DNA of 64,000 bases from a candidate division WOR-3 bacterium. Lineage in GTDB: Bacteria; Hydrothermota; Tepidihabitantia; Tepidihabitantales; Tepidihabitantaceae. The stretch covers positions 64,001-128,000 of the forward strand of contig CBFGIT010000002.1 of the NCBI GenBank assembly GCA_965648905.1, written 5' to 3'. Below the pieces are notes generated by a model. That model searched no databases. It was not told the origin of the DNA and saw nothing but the letters and a program-made list of their open reading frames with translations. Made by a program: the position numbers and the translations under genes. Positions 8,501 to 64,000 of the stretch are shown here, piece after piece (positions within the stretch are counted from its first letter, which is position 1; the number at the start of each line of letters is the position of its first letter).

Positions 8501-9235
8501 GTCTACGATGGCAACCGGACCATCTACGTGCATCAGGCCAAGTACAACGACATGTTCGCCTACGATATCACCACCGGCGAGTGGCGGCAGATGCCTTCCG
8601 GCATGCCGCTGGTCGGTCGCGCGGGCAAGTCCAGAAAGGCGAAGGACGGCAGCAGTGGTGCATGGCTCGAAAACCGGCTGTACTCGCTCAAAGGCGGCAA
8701 CACCTCTGAGTTCTGGCGCTACTCGGCGGCTGCGGATTCGTGGCACGAGATGGAAGAGCTGCCCCTGCTTGGTTCCAGCGGCAGCAAGAAGAAGGTCAAG
8801 GCTGGTGCTGACCTGACTGATTATGTCTCAGGCCAGACAGGTGTCTGCTACGCGTTCAAAGGCAGCAAGACCCGAGAGTTCTGGTGCTACACGCCGGGAG
8901 CAACGCTCTGCGCCTCGCGCTTTGCGCCCGACGCGAGAACCGGTGTCCAGTCCAGTACGATGCACGAGGCGTCCGGCACGGTGCGGGTCTTCCCTAATCT
9001 GCTTCGAGCCGGCTTCGCGACCATCAGGCTGGATGAACAAGTGGCCCACTGGTCCAGTGGTCCGGTGAAAGTCAGTATCATCGATGTCGCCGGTCGTGTT
9101 GTCCGCCATTCGTCATTCGTCATTCGGACCTCGTCCTTGCCGCTTGACCTCGGCGGCCTGAGTGCCGGCGTCTACACCGTGCGTCTGGCCGCAGGCGGCT
9201 ACCAGGCAAGTCAGAGAATCGTCATCCCGCGCTGA
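5564..9235 (+). CDS. Secreted PHP-domain (CehA/McbA-like) metallohydrolase with CARDB domains, Kelch-like propeller and T9SS CTD
   Basis: Signal peptide. PHP motifs HAHTTYSDG, ITDHN, NHP, GNSDYH. CARDB motifs. KGNNT-FYRY repeats. CTD VFPN...DVAGR...LSAGVYTVRL. Confidence 0.85.
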   Translation: MRTATVSVLGLVLASVSFALSPLEQDNVFFDGEVSANNGRVVLSTSLAPARMPAGWYANVEGLDTLTVLLAGQPIAAFGKDRLPKSRIKGLDLSQYAGMLRPGNNQVELRTSPGRFWLRMWTSDNAWYPSNFHAHTTYSDGRYSVHDLLQLVLAEGARAYAITDHNTLAQCYDTAFHPVGELNPIRGTEWTSPLGHANILGPEGATWFDSTMAVRQMLDEASYRGGTVQINHPCDDELGFGWTRYPVLDSSIDCIEVFNNLTWFPGGPRTNDREALAWWHSLLVAGHTIAATGNSDYHGTIPGEGGPMESQTRVWAPSNHPDTILKYMKFGQGMVLDESDDGRIYIYADTNNNGSWDLVMGQHARVTSSRTIRFRAEVEDADWLDDFWVYNRYGTVHNHWFTNPLGPWDYAYEWTANYNAQSRDFVRAYLENAANDPELATNPIYVNHPDYELGPTRLSSQTVNRPDTVLVLSPETLRFRLTNAVGFSPWRYGIAFACDTSRFDIIRWQSSGPGIGQVQYRTSGRYRILEWQGGYTWSNRLSVGTSFDFWLVVRARARGNQQVLFRSWAHDRIQLVELEPRTGFFGPEARVWHCETVFVKAMDVQPVSIEIPAAVMDSSGPIVPQVTVRNNGNAPVDFGVVMNIGSGYSGSASVTGLGPGAARQVSLSPAWQPARGEQAIRCVTLLAGDCVPENDTLWSSVLVRVHDAAAVAVTSPQSRIPAGRITPVAKVRNRGTEREPVKVFFCINSVPVYAESVELTEGLPVDVDTLIAFPDWVAAHGSYLARCSTALVQDQQPGNDTVSLHFVVGPTGQTGWQERANLPNSARVGAFLVSDQATMKVYGAPGGKASDFYAYDPGGDSWSRRCPIPAGVENKPAGKGANACAAGNGTLYTVKGNNTQAFYRYDAVHDSWAALASIPLGTSNKRVKGGADIACADGRVYLVKGDRNEFYRYEPAGDSWTTLTPIPAATPRFGAGSFAVYDGNRTIYVHQAKYNDMFAYDITTGEWRQMPSGMPLVGRAGKSRKAKDGSSGAWLENRLYSLKGGNTSEFWRYSAAADSWHEMEELPLLGSSGSKKKVKAGADLTDYVSGQTGVCYAFKGSKTREFWCYTPGATLCASRFAPDARTGVQSSTMHEASGTVRVFPNLLRAGFATIRLDEQVAHWSSGPVKVSIIDVAGRVVRHSSFVIRTSSLPLDLGGLSAGVYTVRLAAGGYQASQRIVIPR

Positions 9236-9410
9236 CGCATGCGCCGGGAATGACGCCTTACGCGTTACGCTCTACGCTGGACGCCGGGGAGGGTGTCAGA
9301 CTACAAGCGGAGAAGTCACTAGGTTGATAAGCTGAGCTTCGGGACGTCGAGCGCGACTGCACAGACGGATGACCGGGATTGCGCCGGCCCGGTCGAGGCA
9401 TAAGCCTCAG

Positions 9411-14700: not shown

Positions 14701-15345
14701 GATACTTGGTGCACGAAGTCGCTGACCGCCATGCCCCAGGTGAGCCGGACTACCGGCAAGACACGCAAGGCCAAGGACGGGTCGAGCGCGACCTGGTTCA
14801 ACGACGCGGTCTATGCGTTCAAGGGCGCCAACTCTCAGGAGTTCTGGCGCTACCGACCGGACGGCGACTCCTGGACCGAGATGGACACGATTCCTGCGGT
14901 CGGCGTGGCCAACAAGAAGAAGCGGGTCAAGGGCGGGGCCGACATCGTCACAGTCGGCAACGTGCTCTACGCGACCAAAGGGAACAAGAGCAGTGAAATC
15001 TGGCGGTACACGCCGGGAGCGACGCCTTACGCGTTACGCTCTACGCTGTACGCGGGGGAGGGTGTCCAGGCCGACATGATGCCTGAGGCGTCCGGCACAG
15101 TGCGGGTCTTCCCGAACCCGCTTCGAGCCGGCTTCGCGGCCGTGAGGCTGGGCGGTCAGGCCGCTGGTGGGCCGGTGCAGGTCAGCATCCTAGATGTCTC
15201 CGGTCGCTGCGTCCGCAATTCGTCATTCGTCATTCGGACCTCGTCCTTGCCGCTTGACCTCAGCGGCCTGCCGGTTGGTGTCTATACGTTAAGGCTCTCT
15301 GCGGGCGGCGTGACCGAGACCTCTCGACTGGTCATTCAGCACTAG
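11731..15345 (+). CDS. Large secreted protein: OB-fold-like region, CARDB domains, Kelch-like propeller and T9SS CTD
   Basis: RBS AAGGAG, signal peptide MRRISIVAALAMLVSSSWA, IYQIQ...GIVTG...GLCLY...VGD...VEFNNLTEL pattern, KGN-EFWRY repeats, CTD FPNP...GVYTLRL. Confidence 0.85.
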   Translation: MRRISIVAALAMLVSSSWAAPYPMVFKYPQYVQGGAAAGTPGTGVPFAILVGVRADEASGIYGYRPRLLQAPGGAIRHLFWSDSTAGGVSLRNQFITGDAGAYDSLCRLVISAAGETARVWTMVKSTAAAVERESIQFRLRPLGSGTNYNSGTRDTLRIMDMTRTTGNGGWLAGHVFRQSGGPRLSNAVVLAYSGGAIVGSTISENNKINEGFDSTDAGFFLMAVKAGQIDSLRFCSRTNYWTDSAPYTQIPRPWAVSPGETTWVDAGAMIQGVTRTPQYPMSSENVVVSARIYKTGGSVVYDTLYYAVRDTTAWSRVTRDSIRQSDSTYFYHIPPGDTGATVYYRIAVWDDLNNQVITPRLSYQIPFDRSIYQIQYTSGDTSPAYGKYVHTAGIVTGVVTQNKTYVGTREGGPWNGLCLYRRGTITDTLVVGDSLDVLADVVEFNNLTELDTVVRLVRSGSGLRFDTARVSVAESKLESHEGVVLRLDTVRMLDGVGGQFLAGGSYRLTNFAGTDTTVIYVTTGSQFVGRTVPSGWCYLVANGSQYRTQRQLDPRVPGDLAELVPDVAVTAILAPTDSAVGGDTVRPTVVVRNLSTLNPATDVPVRFLIGSVYNVQQNVASLGPGASDTVVFSPWVAVGGSYPMSAFTALAGDPNPANDTVRGALVVVVRDVGAYVINRPRAAEQLGTALRPSVRVRNYGGASVVFDLRLIIKNSSGATVYDTTETGIALSGSGFVDREFTKTWTAEPAGTYNVTAYTSLVGDTDPLNDTAYSVCAVSSGPVLPWVCMNRLMPTTPSNREMKDGAWLAEKDNLIYAAKGNKSTDFYCYFPAADSWKTLASMPTGPDNRTISKGAAGVAGDRDYIYATKGNNTSEFWRYDASLDSWRRMADVPLGTSNKKVKGGTDLVYVKATGPDPGRIYLLKGYKNEFYRYEVSTDSWRTLPPAPVGSNIRWDKGSWLAYHGTPGQGEFTIFAHKAKYHEFYAFDAGADTWCTKSLTAMPQVSRTTGKTRKAKDGSSATWFNDAVYAFKGANSQEFWRYRPDGDSWTEMDTIPAVGVANKKKRVKGGADIVTVGNVLYATKGNKSSEIWRYTPGATPYALRSTLYAGEGVQADMMPEASGTVRVFPNPLRAGFAAVRLGGQAAGGPVQVSILDVSGRCVRNSSFVIRTSSLPLDLSGLPVGVYTLRLSAGGVTETSRLVIQH

Positions 15346-37855: not shown

Positions 37856-38487
37856 TGTCTGGGGCCGATGTGGTAGTCGCGGAGTAGGGTTACGCTGGCG
37901 CCGGTCTCGGCCCGGACCACACCGACGCCCGGCGCAAGCCATTCGGTGCGGGTTTCGACAAGACTGGTGTCGGCCTGGAGGATGCGTCGGGAGTCAACCC
38001 GGTAGCACTGGCAGAACTCGCCGGCCGGCGTGGCGATATCTTCGGCCCCAACAACCCGGGCCCAGACACTGTCGAAGACCGGAACCGTGTCGGTGCCGAG
38101 GAGGATAACCGTGTCGCGGAACGACTCGGCCCAGGACCTGCCGACGACCAAGGGCAGGGCGTAGACAAGCCGGTACTGTTCTTCGAGCACGTATTCGCGA
38201 CCGCTGCGGATGACGGTGCGGCGGACAAGTTGCCGGACTTCGGTCGCGGTCTTGAGCCAGAACTCGGGCGCAAAGTCCCGGAAGACGACCGTCGCCCGTC
38301 GCCCGGCGACCGTGCTGTCCGGGCCGACCGAGTCAACCCGGGCCGGCTCATAAGTCCACGAGGAACCGGACACGAGCGGGAAGTAGTCCTGGCCTGCCCG
38401 GTACATTAGCATGTCTCCGCAGCCGGATAGACCAGCCAGAGCCGGAATCAGAAGCAGAGCCGTGAGCCGGAGGCGGTTAGAAGACAT
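37852..38487 (-). CDS. Hypothetical lipoprotein
   Basis: Lipobox LSGC; YFPL..GSSWTY, TPAG.F..C, W.APGVGVV. Confidence 0.75.
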   Translation of the reverse strand: MSSNRLRLTALLLIPALAGLSGCGDMLMYRAGQDYFPLVSGSSWTYEPARVDSVGPDSTVAGRRATVVFRDFAPEFWLKTATEVRQLVRRTVIRSGREYVLEEQYRLVYALPLVVGRSWAESFRDTVILLGTDTVPVFDSVWARVVGAEDIATPAGEFCQCYRVDSRRILQADTSLVETRTEWLAPGVGVVRAETGASVTLLRDYHIGPRQ

Positions 38488-43951: not shown

Positions 43952-43974
43952 CGCTCCTCCTTGCCGAACTCCGT

Positions 43975-44021
43975 GTTCTGGGTTCTTGATTCTGCATTCT
44001 GATTTCCGGTTTCTGACTTCT
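43975..44021 (-). repeat. Solo heptamer array (AGAANNN)n in an intra-operon gap
   Basis: Minus strand reads agaagtc agaaacc ggaaatc agaatgc agaatca agaaccc agaac. Confidence 0.75.
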
Positions 44022-50054: not shown

Positions 50055-50846
50055 GTGCGGACACACATGGCCCCGGACAGACCGGCGCTCCGACAGGCTC
50101 TTGTTCGGCTCGGTCGTCTCGACTTCGATGACTTCAGGCTGCTGCCCCCAGAAGCGGTTCGACAGGCCCTCAGCGACCCGGACACGCTCGACGACTGGCA
50201 GCTCGCCCTGAACAACGCGCCGCACATCCTCGTCCATTTCCGCCGCTGCTGTTCGGCCTGGTCGCTGGTCATTCGTCAGTCATCACTGGCTGATATCGCA
50301 TCTGCCCAGTCCCGCCTGGTCTTGCACCACGCCCTCCTGTTGCTGCGGGAAAAGGCGCCGCCGCTCTACGACGCGCTGCCCTGGCACGAATGGGACTTCT
50401 CGACGGTCACGAAGAAGTACCGGCTCTGGCAGACGCGGCTCTTCCTGGCCGGCGACGGCACGAGTGCGATTCTGCCCGTGCTCCGCAAGTCTGCGGGAGC
50501 GGTTGTCTTCGAGCCATCCTCAACTCTTGCCCGCTATGTCCAGCGCAAGGCCGAACTCGAACGCATCAGGCGGTTCCGACTCCTTCCGGCTTCTCTGCCG
50601 CTCTCACTTGCGCCTGGCTCTTTCGACCTCGCCATCATCGGCTCCATTCCCTGGCTGCCAACTGCAGAGGGGCAACAGGTGATTAGCGAGGCGCTCCGCA
50701 TCACCCGCGACGTGCTTGTCGTCGAGAACAACCCACTGGTACGGCCGCTGCCCAAAGACAGACTTACCGGGCTGGGTCTTGAGTTCGGCACTGTCCGCGT
50801 TGCTGGCCTTGGCTTGCGTCCCTGCTGGTGGCGCCGGCCAGACTAG
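50055..50846 (+). CDS. Hypothetical protein with a degenerate methyltransferase-like C-terminal fold
   Basis: AGDGT, FEPS and GSFDLAI patterns; co-oriented with the operon. Confidence 0.55.
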   Translation: MRTHMAPDRPALRQALVRLGRLDFDDFRLLPPEAVRQALSDPDTLDDWQLALNNAPHILVHFRRCCSAWSLVIRQSSLADIASAQSRLVLHHALLLLREKAPPLYDALPWHEWDFSTVTKKYRLWQTRLFLAGDGTSAILPVLRKSAGAVVFEPSSTLARYVQRKAELERIRRFRLLPASLPLSLAPGSFDLAIIGSIPWLPTAEGQQVISEALRITRDVLVVENNPLVRPLPKDRLTGLGLEFGTVRVAGLGLRPCWWRRPD

Positions 50847-57083: not shown

Positions 57084-60000
57084 TCAGTCCAGCAGGGCAA
57101 CGATTTCGCGGCAGATATTCTCGGACGCAAAGCCGCGGATGTCGATCGCGAGCGAGCGGCAGTTGGCGGCGCAGGCACCGCAGCCCTTGCACAAGGCTTC
57201 ATTGACGACTGCGGCCTCGCGTCCGGTCTTCTCGTTCACGACTTTGACCTCGATCGCCCGATAGGCGCAGAGCCCTTCGCACATGTGGCAGGCCGAGCAC
57301 TTGGCCGGGTCAACCTGGGCAACTGTGGCCTCAGCCTCCAGCGAATCACGGGAAAGTACGGTTGCAGCCCGGCCGGCAGCAGCCCGGGCCTGGGCGGTCG
57401 CCTCGTCGATGAACTTGGGGAAGTGGCAGAGCCCGGCCATGAACACGCCCTCGGTGGCGAAGTCGACCGGCCGCAGCTTCATGTGCGCCTCAAGGAAGAA
57501 GCCGTCAGAGTTCAAGGGAACCTTGAGCATCTGGGCCAGTTCTTCTGAGCCGGTCTGCGGTACCAGGCCCGAAGAAAGCACGAGGAAATCAGGCGCAAAC
57601 TCGATTTCCCGGCCCAGCACCGGGTCGTGCGCCAGGATGACCGGCTTGCCTTCAACGAGCTTCACCTCCGGCGGCTGCTCAGGCGCGTAGCGGATGAACA
57701 CGACGCCCTGCTGCCGCGCCTTGCGAAAGTATTCTTCGCGCATGCCATAGGTCCGGATGTCACGGTAGAGCACGTAGACATCAGTGTCAGGGTTCATCTC
57801 CTTGACCGCCAAGGCGTTCTTGACCGCCTCGGTGCAGCAGATGCGCGAGCAGTAGGGCCGGTCCGCATCGCGCGAGCCGACACATTGGATCATGACCACG
57901 CTGACTGCCTGCTTCACTCTGGTCGGCTCCTTATCGAGCAACGCTTCGAATTCCTTCTGACTGATGATGGCTGAACTTGCGCCATAGCCGTATTCAGTCG
58001 GCATTCGGTACTGGGCGCCGGTTGCGACCACGACCACGCCGTGCTTCAGGGTGATGTCTGACCCGTTGGACTTGTCGGACGAGTCGGACACCCGGATTGT
58101 GGTCTGGAAGTTCCCGACAAAGCCGTCTATCGCCTTGATGTTCGCGCCGGTGAAAACCTTGATGCGCGGATGCTGCCGGACTCTGGTCTCAAGTTCCTTG
58201 AGGCGCTTGCGCACGTCTTCGCCCTCGACCGTTTTCGCGATGCTCCGGCCATTGCCGCCAAGCTCGTGCTCGCGCTCAACTAGGAAGGCGTCAAATCCTT
58301 CTTCTGCCAGGGACAATGCTGCGGTCATGCCCGCGATGCCGCCACCGATGACCAGCCCGGCCTTGGTCACGGGCAGTTTGACCTTGGGCAGCGGTCTCAG
58401 GCGCAGCGCGCGTGCCACTGCCATCTTCACCAGGTCTTTCGACTTCTCAGTTGCCTTGTCCGGCTCCTTCATGTGGACCCATGAACACTGGTCCCGGATA
58501 TTGGCCATGGCGAACAGGTGCGGGTTCAGTCCTGCCTCTGCCACGGTCGCCTGGAACAGCGGCTCGTGAGTGCGCGGCGAGCAGGAGGCGACAACCACCC
58601 GGTTGAGCCGGTGCTCCCGGATACGTTCCTTTATCTTGTCCTGGGTGTCGCCCGAGCAGGAATAGAGGTTCTCCTCGGCATAGACGACATGGGGCAGGGT
58701 TCGGGCAAACTCAACCACTTCGGGCACGCGCACCACACCGCCGATGTTGATGCCGCAGTGACAGACGAACACGCCGATTCTCGGCGCCTCACCGCGCACG
58801 TCGGTTTCGGGCGGAGCCACCAGTTCCCGGGCCAGTGTGCCGCGTTCGGCTGCAAGCACCTCTTCGGCTGAGGCCGCGGCACCAGATGCACCGGTCACAG
58901 CTTCAGGTATCGCCATCGGTTTTGAAAAGCTGCCGGCCACACTGATGCCTGGCCGGCTGGTCGCGGTCGGGTTCCAGTCGTCGGTCCGGGTAAAACCGAA
59001 CCGGTCCAGCTCAAGGTCCAGCCGCTTTGACAGCTCGACCAGTTCCGCCGGCGGCACGAACCCGCACGAGAGCACGACCAAGTCGAACTCCTCGGCGCGT
59101 GTGCCTTCCTCGCCGGCGTAGCGCAGAACCAGATTGTGGGTTTCAGGGTCTTCGCGGACTTCAGGCACGCGCGCCCGCACCAGGCGCACGCCGTACTGTG
59201 TCTCAGCGCGTTCAACGTACCGGTCGAAGTCCTTGCCGTAGGAGCGCATGTCCATGTAGAACACGGTCGGCTCGACGTCTCGGGCATGCTCTCGGGCAAT
59301 GACCGCTTCCTTCACCGCATACATGCAGCACATCGCTGAGCAGTAGCCGCGCTCGACCGAGTCGTCACGCGAGCCGACGCACTGCAGCCAGGCAACGCGT
59401 CTGGGCGGCCTGCCGTCTGAGGGCCGCTGCACATGGCCGCCGTACGGACCCGATGCAGACAGGATGCGCTCAAATTCAAGGCTTGTGACTACGTTCGGAT
59501 ATCGACCATGGCCGTACTCAGGCCGCAGTGTGGTCGGTGCGATTGCCGAGCCGGCAGCGACAACAACCGACCCGACTTCAATGGTCAACTCCTCGTCCTG
59601 CTGGGTATAGTCGATTGCCCCGGCCTTGCACGATTTCTGGCACGCGCCGCACTTATCCTTGAGAAACTTCAGACAGTGCGCGCGGTCGATCGTCGGCGCA
59701 TTCGGCACGGCCTGCGCGTACAGCCGGTAGATGGCGCGGCGCTTGTTCAAGCCGCCTTCGAACTCGTTGGGCAGGTCTCGGACCGGGCACTTGGTCAGGC
59801 AGTCACCGCAGCCGGTGCACTTTGCCAGGTCCACTGACCGGGCATGACGTCTGAGTCTGACCTGGAAATTACCCGGTTCGCCTTCGACCGAGAGCACCTC
59901 GGTAAGGGTCAGAAGCTCGATGTTGTGGTGCCGACCTGCGGCCACGAGCTTGGGCGAGAGGATGCACATCGAGCAGTCATTGGTCGGGAAGGTCTTATCG

Positions 60001-60146
60001 AGCATCGCCATGATCCCGCCGATGGCCGGCGACCGTTCGACCAGATAGACCCGATAACCGGAGTCAGCAAGGTCCAGCGCGGTCTGAACACCGCCGATAC
60101 CGCCGCCGACCACCATGACCGCGCCAATCCTTCTGGGTTCACTCAT
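57084..60146 (-). CDS. hdrA: Heterodisulfide reductase subunit A-like FAD/Fe-S protein (long form)
   Basis: GGGIGG, LDKTFPTNDCSMC, QCVGSRD, CHCG.NI, CSPRTHE, FLEAHMKLRPVDF, ferredoxin motifs. Confidence 0.93.
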   Translation of the reverse strand: MSEPRRIGAVMVVGGGIGGVQTALDLADSGYRVYLVERSPAIGGIMAMLDKTFPTNDCSMCILSPKLVAAGRHHNIELLTLTEVLSVEGEPGNFQVRLRRHARSVDLAKCTGCGDCLTKCPVRDLPNEFEGGLNKRRAIYRLYAQAVPNAPTIDRAHCLKFLKDKCGACQKSCKAGAIDYTQQDEELTIEVGSVVVAAGSAIAPTTLRPEYGHGRYPNVVTSLEFERILSASGPYGGHVQRPSDGRPPRRVAWLQCVGSRDDSVERGYCSAMCCMYAVKEAVIAREHARDVEPTVFYMDMRSYGKDFDRYVERAETQYGVRLVRARVPEVREDPETHNLVLRYAGEEGTRAEEFDLVVLSCGFVPPAELVELSKRLDLELDRFGFTRTDDWNPTATSRPGISVAGSFSKPMAIPEAVTGASGAAASAEEVLAAERGTLARELVAPPETDVRGEAPRIGVFVCHCGINIGGVVRVPEVVEFARTLPHVVYAEENLYSCSGDTQDKIKERIREHRLNRVVVASCSPRTHEPLFQATVAEAGLNPHLFAMANIRDQCSWVHMKEPDKATEKSKDLVKMAVARALRLRPLPKVKLPVTKAGLVIGGGIAGMTAALSLAEEGFDAFLVEREHELGGNGRSIAKTVEGEDVRKRLKELETRVRQHPRIKVFTGANIKAIDGFVGNFQTTIRVSDSSDKSNGSDITLKHGVVVVATGAQYRMPTEYGYGASSAIISQKEFEALLDKEPTRVKQAVSVVMIQCVGSRDADRPYCSRICCTEAVKNALAVKEMNPDTDVYVLYRDIRTYGMREEYFRKARQQGVVFIRYAPEQPPEVKLVEGKPVILAHDPVLGREIEFAPDFLVLSSGLVPQTGSEELAQMLKVPLNSDGFFLEAHMKLRPVDFATEGVFMAGLCHFPKFIDEATAQARAAAGRAATVLSRDSLEAEATVAQVDPAKCSACHMCEGLCAYRAIEVKVVNEKTGREAAVVNEALCKGCGACAANCRSLAIDIRGFASENICREIVALLD

Positions 60147-60171
60147 CGTTACCGCACTCCCGAACACCGGG

Positions 60172-60644
60172 CGAAGTCAGAACCTAGAAGCGAGAATCCA
60201 GAAGCTAGAACCCCGACCACTTCAGCCTCTCTTCCCCGTATTGGACTTAGCGGTTAGAACCGACTTCACGACCATTCGGATGAGCTCATCCGCCTCGGTA
60301 AGCAGAGGTGCCAGCGCACCTGCGGGTGCGAGACCTGCCCGCTGCACGAGCATCAACCAGTACTGGGTTTCGCGCAGCTCCTTGAGCACAACTTGGAGCT
60401 TGTGGACAAAGTCCGCTCGGCTCTCTGCCCCACGGGCTTCCTGATAGTTCGCTCCAGCCGAGGTAGCGGAACGTATGACCTGGCTACTGATATGCCGAGC
60501 TGATGCGGTTCGTGCCATTCGGTCGGTCAGCTTGAGACAGCCGGTAGCGAACGTCAGCAGTCGTTCACCCAGGCTACCGGGCTTCAGCGTATCAGGGACC
60601 CGCTGCTCTGGCTTCTGTGCTCTAGCTTCTACCATCTGACTTCG
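60172..60644. repeat. 38-bp imperfect inverted repeats (60172-60209 and 60607-60644) made of heptamers, bracketing the four-helix-bundle gene
   Basis: Plus strand CGAAGTCAGAACCTAGAAGCGAGAATCCAGAAGCTAGA vs minus strand CGAAGTCAGATGGTAGAAGCTAGAGCACAGAAGCCAGA; 30/38 identical by my alignment. Confidence 0.8.
60222..60635 (-). CDS. Four-helix-bundle protein (23S rRNA IVS protein / Avd-like family)
   Basis: QVIRSATSAGANYQEARGAESRADFVHKL.V.LKELRETQYWL family signature. Confidence 0.9.
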   Translation of the reverse strand: MVEARAQKPEQRVPDTLKPGSLGERLLTFATGCLKLTDRMARTASARHISSQVIRSATSAGANYQEARGAESRADFVHKLQVVLKELRETQYWLMLVQRAGLAPAGALAPLLTEADELIRMVVKSVLTAKSNTGKRG

Positions 60645-61347
60645 TCTGGTCTGCATGTTCCAGCGCTGCCAACGTTGCCGGGTAGCTGTACCCGTCTTCA
60701 ATGGCGCACTGTTTGATGGCGTTCATTATCCGGCTGATCTGCACACCCTGGGGGCAGCGCGAGATGCAACGAAAATGGGTGGCGCAGATGTCTTTGAACT
60801 CATCGGCCAGTGCCTCGTCGCGCAGGCCGAGGTTGACCTTGCGGATGAACCGGCGCGGGTCCTTTTCCGGGTCAAAGAGCGTCTCCGGGCAGACTGCACT
60901 GCACGAGCCGCAGACAAAGCAGGCAGTGACGTTCTCGGCCATCCGGCGCACCTGCTTCTTGAACGTGCGGTCCAGGTCGGACTGAAGGACTCGGGACTTT
61001 GTGCTCAGGAGTCTGGACTTGCGTGCTTCTTCGGCCAGGCGCGAGACTGCGTCTGCGACCTCGCCGATGTTCACGCCCTGCGGACACCGATGCAGGCAGG
61101 TCGTGTGATACGAGCACATCCAGACAAACTCGGAGCGATACACTTCATCCTTCATGCCCATGATCGCCATGCGGATGATACGCCTCGGGTTGTACTTCTC
61201 TTCAAGCCGGCGCACCGGACAGGAAGCCGAGCACGAGCCGCAGGACAGGCAGTGCATGAACCCGGTGTCGCCGTACTTTTCGGCCAGCCGGTGCTTGAAC
61301 TCGCTGTCGAGGTCGTTGACGAGCAGCTCGCGTGCTTCGGCCAACAC
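60622..61347 (-). CDS. hdrC: HdrC-like Fe-S protein with two tandem HdrC domains
   Basis: Two copies of CxxCGSCSxxCP...PRR.IR...LG/MG...CxxHxxCxxRCPQGV. Confidence 0.8.
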   Translation of the reverse strand: MLAEARELLVNDLDSEFKHRLAEKYGDTGFMHCLSCGSCSASCPVRRLEEKYNPRRIIRMAIMGMKDEVYRSEFVWMCSYHTTCLHRCPQGVNIGEVADAVSRLAEEARKSRLLSTKSRVLQSDLDRTFKKQVRRMAENVTACFVCGSCSAVCPETLFDPEKDPRRFIRKVNLGLRDEALADEFKDICATHFRCISRCPQGVQISRIMNAIKQCAIEDGYSYPATLAALEHADQTKSDGRS

Positions 61348-62924: not shown

Positions 62925-64000
62925 TCATAGCGCCGAGTCGACCATCGACAGAACGTTCTTTGCCTCAAAGCTCTTGAGCTTAATTGCCTCAGACGGACAG
63001 GCGGCAGCACACGCGCCGCATCCCTGGCACAGCACCGCGGTAACCTCGGACCTGCCGGTTTCCGGGTTGAGCCGCGCTGCCTCGTACTGGCAGACTTCTT
63101 CGCACACGCCGCAGCCTACGCACCAGCGCTGGTTCACCTCAGCTACCACCGCCTCAGTCGAGAGCTCTTTGTGCGCGATGAGCGAGCAGGCGCGGGCTGC
63201 AGCCGCATAGGCTTGGGCAACAGTTTCCGGGATCCGGCGCGGGCTGTGCGCCATGCCGGCCATGAATACCCCACGCGTGGTGAAGTCTACCGGCCGCAGC
63301 TTCATGTGCGCTTCGAGGAAGAAGCCGTCCTCGTTCAACGGCACCTTGAGCAGTTGGCCCAGGGTGAAGTTGCTCTTCGGCGGCACGACCCCGGCAGACA
63401 GGACCAGAAGGTCGGCATTGATGCCCAGGCGACGCTGCAGCACCGGGTCATAGACCGACACGTGCAGTTGACCGTCAACCGACTGCACTTCGGGCTTGGT
63501 CTCGGGGTCAAATCGGACAAACATTACACCTGCCTCGCGTGCGTCGCGGTACAGCGCTTCTTTGAACCCATAGGTGCGCATGTCGCGATAGAGCACGTAT
63601 ACGTTCACCTTTGGGTTGACCTGCTTCAGCTTGAGCGCATTCTTCACCGCTTCAGTGCAGCAGATACGCGAGCACCAAGGACGTTCACTCTCGCGCGAGC
63701 CCACGCACTGTACCATCACAACGTGCTTCAAGTCCCTGGCTCTGTCCGGCTGTTCGACCAGCAGCTTCTCCAGTTCGGTCTGCGTCTTTACCCGCTCGTC
63801 CTTGCCGTAGAGGAACTCGGTCGGCTGATACTCCTCAGCACCGGTTGCCACCACAAACACGCCGTGCTCGAGCACGGTGTCCGACCGGTCGGACCGGTCT
63901 GACCTGTCAGACTGCCGGACCGTGGTCCTGTAGTTCCCGACATAGCCGGTCACGTCGACCAGCTCGGCCTTGGTGAAAACCTTCACCATAGGATGACGCC
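62925..64000 (-). CDS. hdrA: Second HdrA-like protein (C-terminal part; 5' end lies beyond the window)
   Basis: QCVGSRE, CSRICC, FLEAHMKLRPVDF, two ferredoxin motifs; paralog of the C-terminal half of 57084-60146. Confidence 0.9.
   Translation of the reverse strand, partial: RHPMVKVFTKAELVDVTGYVGNYRTTVRQSDRSDRSDRSDTVLEHGVFVVATGAEEYQPTEFLYGKDERVKTQTELEKLLVEQPDRARDLKHVVMVQCVGSRESERPWCSRICCTEAVKNALKLKQVNPKVNVYVLYRDMRTYGFKEALYRDAREAGVMFVRFDPETKPEVQSVDGQLHVSVYDPVLQRRLGINADLLVLSAGVVPPKSNFTLGQLLKVPLNEDGFFLEAHMKLRPVDFTTRGVFMAGMAHSPRRIPETVAQAYAAAARACSLIAHKELSTEAVVAEVNQRWCVGCGVCEEVCQYEAARLNPETGRSEVTAVLCQGCGACAAACPSEAIKLKSFEAKNVLSMVDSAL

Follow-up and report, generated by a model that had tools for sequence, protein, structure and literature searches.

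Proteins of the PF05635 family, a very common four-helix-bundle family, have to our knowledge no known function, and we know of no explanation for the 7-mer repeats found at gene junctions in bacteria. The best comparison for the locus described here comes from the intervening sequences (IVS) of 23S rRNA in Coxiella burnetii and Leptospira, in which terminal inverted repeats close a loop that contains a PF05635 (S23p) ORF, with tandem heptamers just upstream of the ORF and a sporadic, horizontally acquired distribution (accessible part of PMC4990558). In the helix-45 IVS of C. burnetii, the stem measures 28 bp, RNase III cuts the arm at the first repeat, and the ORF is decaying (same source). 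The PF05635/Avd family forms homopentamers (PMC4990558, PMC5758913), and Avd of DGRs is a homologous, basic homopentamer (PMC10053308). A DGR target comprises an IMH and a GC hairpin with a 4-34-bp spacer (PMC3240598, PMC5758913, PMC12875486), and the route by which the cDNA finds this target is described as unknown (PMC12875486). The known Avd site in BPP-1 is a spacer RNA (PMC7826257).

Here, we analyse a cassette in a 64,000-nt stretch (the window) of a candidate division WOR-3 genome (G000). Its design is that of an ORF-bearing rRNA IVS, yet location and enzyme set it apart from one, and it is neither an IS nor a DGR. With the 23S IVS it shares a PF05635 ORF of similar size, the terminal inverted repeats and the heptamers ahead of the ORF (PMC4990558, as accessible). 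Unlike them, it lies between protein-coding genes in a host lineage without detectable RNase III, its ORF is under purifying selection, both of its arms are five-unit arrays, and several cassette types alternate at one site. As in many DGR target genes of the Avd type, a 7/8-nt array with a pyrimidine-rich strand follows the stop codon of the cassette gene, yet the locus has no RT, template or variable repeat, and the Avd model NF033474 does not match its protein. The TAACTGA repeats of Beggiatoaceae likewise form runs of 2-6 heptamers at gene junctions, with their origin left unexplained, but the accessible text of that paper reports a single inverted case and makes no mention of a helix bundle, S23 or an intervening sequence (PMC4679880). 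The 23S_rRNA_IVP genes between cas genes (PMC3936711) and the rRNA insertions of CPR bacteria (bioRxiv 10.1101/2024.02.27.582315) similarly show family members dispersed through operons and inserted at several places, although repeat arms are undescribed in the accessible parts of both. A literature search, within whose reach few subscription papers fell, returned no description of an armed cassette between protein genes.

Results

Architecture of the cassette

The cassette has the following features, all on the minus strand and in window coordinates:

60166..60650, minus strand: whole cassette (5' arm, four-helix-bundle gene, 3' arm), 485 bp
60607..60650, minus strand: 5' arm, a 6-nt flank and five heptamers with an AGA/CGA core; mRNA strand purine-rich
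60222..60635, minus strand: four-helix-bundle protein gene, 137 aa, PF05635 and TIGR02436; start codon predicted
60166..60209, minus strand: 3' arm, five heptamers with a TCT core; mRNA strand pyrimidine-rich; non-coding
60622..61347, minus strand: upstream host gene, HdrC-like two-domain Fe-S protein; last codons supplied by the 5' arm
57084..60146, minus strand: downstream host gene, HdrA-like flavoprotein; ATG at 60146

A first-pass annotation had described a 473-bp unit with 38-bp inverted ends. The arms stand at the same coordinates (60172-60209 and 60607-60644, 30/38 inverted match) and the unit is real, but pairing continues 6 bp outward (60166-60209 and 60607-60650, 34/44), which gives a length of 485 bp; the span is 484-485 bp in four orthologues. 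Each arm consists of five heptamers plus three bases. The annotation had also assigned the hdrC stop codon (60622-60624) and the ATG of the four-helix gene (60633-60635) to one arm, and both indeed lie inside the 5' arm.

The cassette sits outside rRNA genes, between hdrC-like and hdrA-like neighbours whose scores against HdrC- and HdrA-type models stay under the equivalog cut-offs. It holds one ORF with PF05635 as the sole Pfam match and thus no transposase, as had been stated before. An Rfam search returned nothing above threshold, with a single sub-threshold snoRNA match, and detected no group I or II intron ribozyme fold in the cassette. The scanned neighbours encode Hdr/Fe-S, MATE and GNAT proteins, with no RT, template or variable repeat among them, and the DGRs of G000 are located on other contigs. 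Besides, a worn, in-frame heptamer run lies in the linker between the two HdrC domains (window 60985-61030), and in-frame 9-mer repeats (SDRSDRSD-like) occur within two HdrA-type genes (58055-58085 and 63880-63930); similar repeats lie around and inside longer four-helix genes on contigs C6 and C4.

A conserved, basic four-helix-bundle protein

The cassette ORF scored 61.7 bits against PF05635 (cut-off 33.8) and 82 bits against TIGR02436 (cut-off 24). Its product has a predicted pI of 10.2 and is related to PDB 2RLD (E 6.5e-16), which was solved with five chains. The Avd model NF033474 is not among its matches; the G000 matches to that model lie on C3 and C51. When four copies were modelled, the self-association score was 0.57 against 0.18 for the best control; the mark was reached by 21/30 solved pairs and 0/23 single chains, and runs agreed in at least 73% of contacts with pLDDT of at least 83. 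The fold model thus supports self-association, although memory may contribute, a similar structure having been solved. Among type-A orthologues (see below), synonymous codon changes exceeded non-synonymous ones by about 2:1 (e.g. 45 vs 19), with 38-59 of 100 third codon positions differing. This excess at high third-position divergence indicates that the protein is kept by purifying selection. Viral contigs yielded one weak, partial match to it.

Inverted arms accompany the protein family

G000 holds 11 PF05635 matches, which, read from sequence, comprise seven plain genes flanked on each side by heptamer arrays, two longer genes that have 9-mer repeats, and two Avd genes of DGRs. The nearest paralogues of the cassette protein in this genome are 60-61% identical and have different arms, and no near-identical cassette copies were found at several G000 sites. 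Flanking inverted arrays around other four-helix genes, which the first-pass annotation had proposed to look for, proved widespread. In the host family, inverted arms with a score of 32 or more were present at 83/90 loci, compared to 8% when flanks were swapped between loci; 7/97 loci too close to a contig end had been dropped, and about 90 of some 130 matches were retrieved. Across phyla, 66/70 homologues had them, compared to 25% with swapped flanks (1/71 loci dropped). In both sets the loci are kin, and these counts overstate their independence. The cross-phylum array period was 7 in 29 and 8 in 39 cases, the latter mostly in Chitinophagaceae.

The unit sequence varies between cassettes and is common to both arms of one cassette, and cassettes with proteins 55-65% identical have widely different cores. 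Within the heptamer, four phases pair at 86-89% and three at 61-65% across cassettes, the phase having been chosen on the same data. A unit-permutation test gave a significant total of 869 vs 782 +/- 11, a difference inflated by alignment ends, and p 0.097 for the present cassette type. The number of units peaked at five in both arms, i.e. in 20/39 and 20/39 family representatives, in 21/35 and 20/35 octamer cassettes, and in 10/31 and 12/31 cross-phylum heptamer cassettes; period and core were set for each cassette individually, and the counts have tails from 3 to 18. Because the score threshold excluded few loci, this peak is not merely a detection floor. It matches a homopentamer.

The earlier claim that the element lacks an evident target duplication was confirmed more broadly, as direct words shared by the flanks of 83 cassettes were no commoner than in the swapped control; old insertions could have lost such a duplication.

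The arm match against other arrays

G000 is rich in period-7 arrays (222, compared to 12 of period 8 and four of period 10), and the proper null for the arm match is therefore the other arrays. Seven of the 222 matched arm A as well as its partner does, and five matched arm B. The match is thus better than that of random heptamer-array pairs, an outcome on which the first-pass annotation had made its proposal depend; it beats about 97% of random G000 arrays, though it is not unique. Among 1731 G000 genes of 240-1500 nt, called with a simple self-trained model that overlooked the cassette gene itself, 13 have flanks that reach the inverted-repeat score of the cassette, and four of these belong to the PF05635 family. 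Solo arrays showed a mild skew towards pairing inward with a close partner at 21/28 (22/222, compared to 14/222 outward), and 81/222 lie within predicted genes.

Further period-7 arrays were seen in the window at 9097-9288, 15019-15246, 38278-38316, 43970-44016 and 50257-50287, and the two near 9.1-9.3 kb reappear near 15.0-15.2 kb in swapped order. Clusters of repeated arrays and hairpins without a gene, spaced by about 90-230 nt, occur elsewhere in G000 (C14:2606-3804, C1:113711-114336).

An allele series at the hdrC-hdrA junction

The first-pass annotation had proposed to compare this junction in relatives for an empty site. Among the 29 relatives with both hdrC and hdrA in hand, we found 18 empty junctions, including that of the sister species, alongside five cassettes, two gene-less hairpins, one case of arrays in frame into HdrA and three remnants (all classes other than 'cassette' were judged by eye). 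None carried the gene at this junction without arms (5/5 armed). Three further genomes, outside the 29, have cassettes at hdrC-hdrA. The cassette alleles at this junction are of three types, each with its own matched arms:

Type A (the type in the window): also in G010, G025, G033 and G064; 77-81% identical
Type B: hdrC-hdrA junction of G036, G067 and G063; 55% identical
Type C: G031; about 60% identical

In G036 and G067, a type-A 5' arm with the hdrC stop is retained ahead of type B. Type B also occupies an hdrA-hdrA junction in G009, and its copies are 75-82% identical. Alternative types occur at two more junctions, namely at a sulfite-reductase/hydrogenase-like gene pair, where G000 and G001 differ, and behind a HAD-like gene (labels assigned by eye).

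The sister species G001 has an empty junction, in which a GTG start overlaps the hdrC stop by 8 nt. The same empty 8-nt overlap was found in G018 and G029 and in the more distant G009, G017, G011, G002 and G020. G001 is sister to G000 in the rpoB, hdrC and hdrA trees (the rpoB tree being a quick version, with the G031 row, a wrong ORF, left out). The HdrC C-terminus differs from that of the empty-site relatives, and because type A replaced the last hdrC codons, its deletion could not restore the G001 junction. We infer that hdrC-hdrA alleles either were swapped along a short stretch of DNA or arose by several separate gains; the hdrC and hdrA trees fit repeated gain of the cassette as well as re-acquisition of empty alleles.

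The arms themselves are conserved. Among the five orthologues, the mean identity of the 5' arm is 92%, and the 3' arm is 88% identical compared to 50% and 37% in the 30 nt on either side. Mismatches between the arms are fixed across species, with one compensatory change. As side observations, the arrays in G027 (L030) are now part of the HdrA N-terminus behind an intact 8-nt overlap, and in G033 (L014) the 5' arm is duplicated at a distance of 85 nt.

Similar arrays at DGR target ends

A chain of 7/8-nt units was detected at the target end of 22/28 Avd-bearing DGRs and at the template end of 0/28. In DGRs without detected Avd, it was present in 1/10 (Fisher p 2.5e-4, which overstates the difference, several loci being kin and five of the ten being crAss-like). 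The Avd sample comprised phages of Bacillota and Gammaproteobacteria, cyanobacterial plasmids and metagenome contigs; 3/31 loci in which no TR/VR pair was found were dropped, and L252, scored at a truncated edge, was counted as a miss. For ANMV-1, the lone Avd-less DGR with an array, a drawing in PMC4372165 includes a putative Avd. Six Avd DGRs failed the array test, BPP-1 among them; by eye, the IMH of BPP-1 contains three units that end in TGA, spaced by 8 and 7 nt, and all three are altered in IMH*. Earlier, differently anchored passes gave 19/23 vs 10/148 ordinary genes, and 3/8 vs 0/10.

In G000 itself, all three targets of the C3 DGR, one of which sits on another contig, have, in the interval from the stop codon to the GC hairpin, five ATCTG units spaced by 8 nt, and the three targets of the C51 DGR have an array of 4-5 units. 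The arrays are located as follows:

G000 DGR target arrays, in the stop-to-GC-hairpin interval: C3:89140, C3:92431 and C9:86552; C51:1114, 5490 and about 12536
Other Avd-type DGR loci with arrays: L243, L245, L246, L248-L250, L253-L257, L289-L296, L301-L308

Across 15 aligned DGRs, the arrays lie at or past the end of template homology. TCTG is the commonest DGR array core and occurs also in the 3' arm of the cassette, and the TAACTGA 7-mer of Beggiatoaceae recurs at the target end of the VHML DGR. We found no description of periodic arrays at DGR targets in the literature, including the main texts of PMC3240598 and PMC5758913 as far as accessible; the supplements of the latter align IMH regions and may bear on this claim.

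Discussion

The present data document an insertion at the hdrC-hdrA junction in which gene and arms are both conserved. Our tentative preference, held at a little under an even chance, is for an exchangeable cassette whose arms are putative binding tracks for its own pentamer and which host recombination, perhaps aided by that binding, moves and swaps. The arms would act as recognition tracks for a basic homopentamer with about one 7-8-nt unit per subunit, each unit comprising a fixed core of about four bases and three free ones, as seen in the arrays that stand at the target ends of Avd-type DGRs. More weakly, binding might unite the two ends or keep them single-stranded, host recombination might then move, swap or delete the cassette at gene junctions, and gene-less hairpins and solo arrays might be its derivatives. 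An upstream stop restored by the 5' arm, together with translation that would be coupled into the cassette gene, could keep insertion cheap. The mobile unit suggested by the first-pass annotation is thereby partly retained: empty, arms-only and replaced alleles show a cassette that is insertable and exchangeable, but it encodes no transposase, and insertion is not precise. Against our preferred reading stand the 222 arrays for seven plain family genes in G000, the widely different cores of cassettes with proteins 55-65% identical, the tails of the five-unit counts, the Avd DGRs that failed the array test, the arm cutting by RNase III and the decaying ORF in Coxiella, and the report that BPP-1 Avd binds DNA and RNA in vitro without detectable sequence specificity (PMC5758913, accessible part). 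The lack of near-identical recent copies and of a target duplication speaks against it as well. Besides, the patchiness could reflect plain allele exchange, and the move of type B could have used homology between hdrA paralogues.

A wider proposal, which we consider possible yet rather doubtful, holds that PF05635/Avd pentamers count repeats, one unit per subunit, and so mark both cassette ends and DGR target ends for cDNA homing. The cassette could then spread without a transposase or RNase III, and the BPP-1 track would be the three TGA-ending IMH units, each broken in IMH*. If true, this proposal would link rRNA intervening sequences, the excess of 7-mer repeats and the choice of DGR targets. 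DGRs are in use as engineering tools, and recognition of arrays, if real, would make DGR target recognition predictable from sequence. Independently of this, the hdrC-hdrA locus presents empty alleles, arms-only alleles and alleles of three cassette types as a natural series. As the lineage has no detectable RNase III, this series sets the cassette apart from the account of rRNA processing.

Could the cassette instead act at the RNA level? Rings that bind RNA repeats are familiar from TRAP and Hfq. By analogy, the ring protein might bind the mRNA repeats, with the stem or its blocking setting downstream translation or stability, and the cassette would be a portable, autoregulated insert spread by ordinary gene transfer. 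In line with this, the arms pair in both the MFE and centroid folds of the cassette RNA, and in most of the 76 loci scored the start of the 5' arm lies about 50 nt or less from the upstream stop. In Beggiatoaceae, heptamer arrays directly precede start codons and have been suggested to bind RNA (PMC4679880), and Avd binds RNA (PMC7826257, both sources as accessible). The folding that the first-pass annotation expected is hence predicted for the arms, but the cassette RNA as a whole is no more stable than shuffled sequences (z -1.29). Co-orientation with the upstream gene (62/81 loci) equals the genome baseline of about 80%, and sister species operate the same operon without a cassette. Neither did we observe a preference for the mRNA strand in wobble pairs or duplex energy: G-U pairs numbered 173 on the mRNA strand vs 220 on the other in the family, and 43 vs 46 and 47 vs 53 across phyla, the sense strand had the better duplex energy in 36/83 loci, and the arm stem of the present cassette is more stable on the non-coding strand (-56.9 kcal/mol) than on the mRNA strand (-48.6 kcal/mol). 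The overall strand test pointed toward the non-mRNA strand (p 0.02), an effect lost per cluster. We therefore regard such a regulator as unlikely, albeit worth keeping in view. Far less credible for this locus is excision from the mRNA by RNase III without ligation, as for the rRNA IVS, even though the architecture is the same as in the Coxiella 23S IVS (PMC4990558, accessible part). RNase III was not found in G000 (99.57% complete) with TIGR02191, PF14622, PF00636 or a motif scan, and in other well-assembled genomes of the order (families f1-f5) it was found in 2/45, as a fragment at a contig end in one and carrying a stop in the other, yet 27/43 family genomes carry the PF05635 gene; other families of the class have the enzyme in 8/8, 11/11 and 18/19 genomes. 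Cutting here would also take out the hdrC stop region. The idea of an mRNA-excised IVS, put forward in the first-pass annotation, thus did not hold, given the undetected enzyme, the missing wobble bias on the mRNA strand and stem mismatches that are conserved and not repaired. Excision by RNase III may apply in lineages that possess it, and the RNA of the present cassette may still fold or be cut by another nuclease.

The arms might also be recognised by nothing at all. Arrays would then disperse by slippage and be inverted in pairs by template switching, the gene would ride along as a neutral passenger, and exchange would be left to host recombination. The 222 arrays of G000, most of which lack a close inverted partner (22/222 inward at 21/28) and 81 of which lie inside predicted genes, fit such an origin, as does a register-specific matching that is not significant in most single cassettes. 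It is nonetheless improbable, since the non-coding 3' arm is 88% identical between flanks at 37-50% while about half of the third codon positions differ, since paired arms occur at 83/90 and 66/70 homologues compared to 13/1731 ordinary genes, and since neither the five-unit peak nor the DGR target arrays would be expected. A MITE-like, non-autonomous transposon, with the arms as terminal repeats, the gene as cargo and a transposase or recombinase encoded elsewhere, would account for the inverted ends, gene-less derivatives, patchy presence and nesting. We deem it quite improbable, though, as there is no target duplication, cassettes within one genome have different arms which, by eye, follow the protein clade, the insertion is unclean with the last hdrC codons replaced, and the orientation is non-random.

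Genes of other kinds were also seen between arrays in G000. Two lipoprotein-like genes of about 260 codons (label by eye) lie within inverted heptamer arms (C1:88433-89236 and C13:8137-8910), and other cargo may thus exist. Lastly, a GxxExxY gene (TIGR04256; L321, C19:12123-12470) is flanked by inverted 9-mer-like runs which, by eye, have the opposite polarity.
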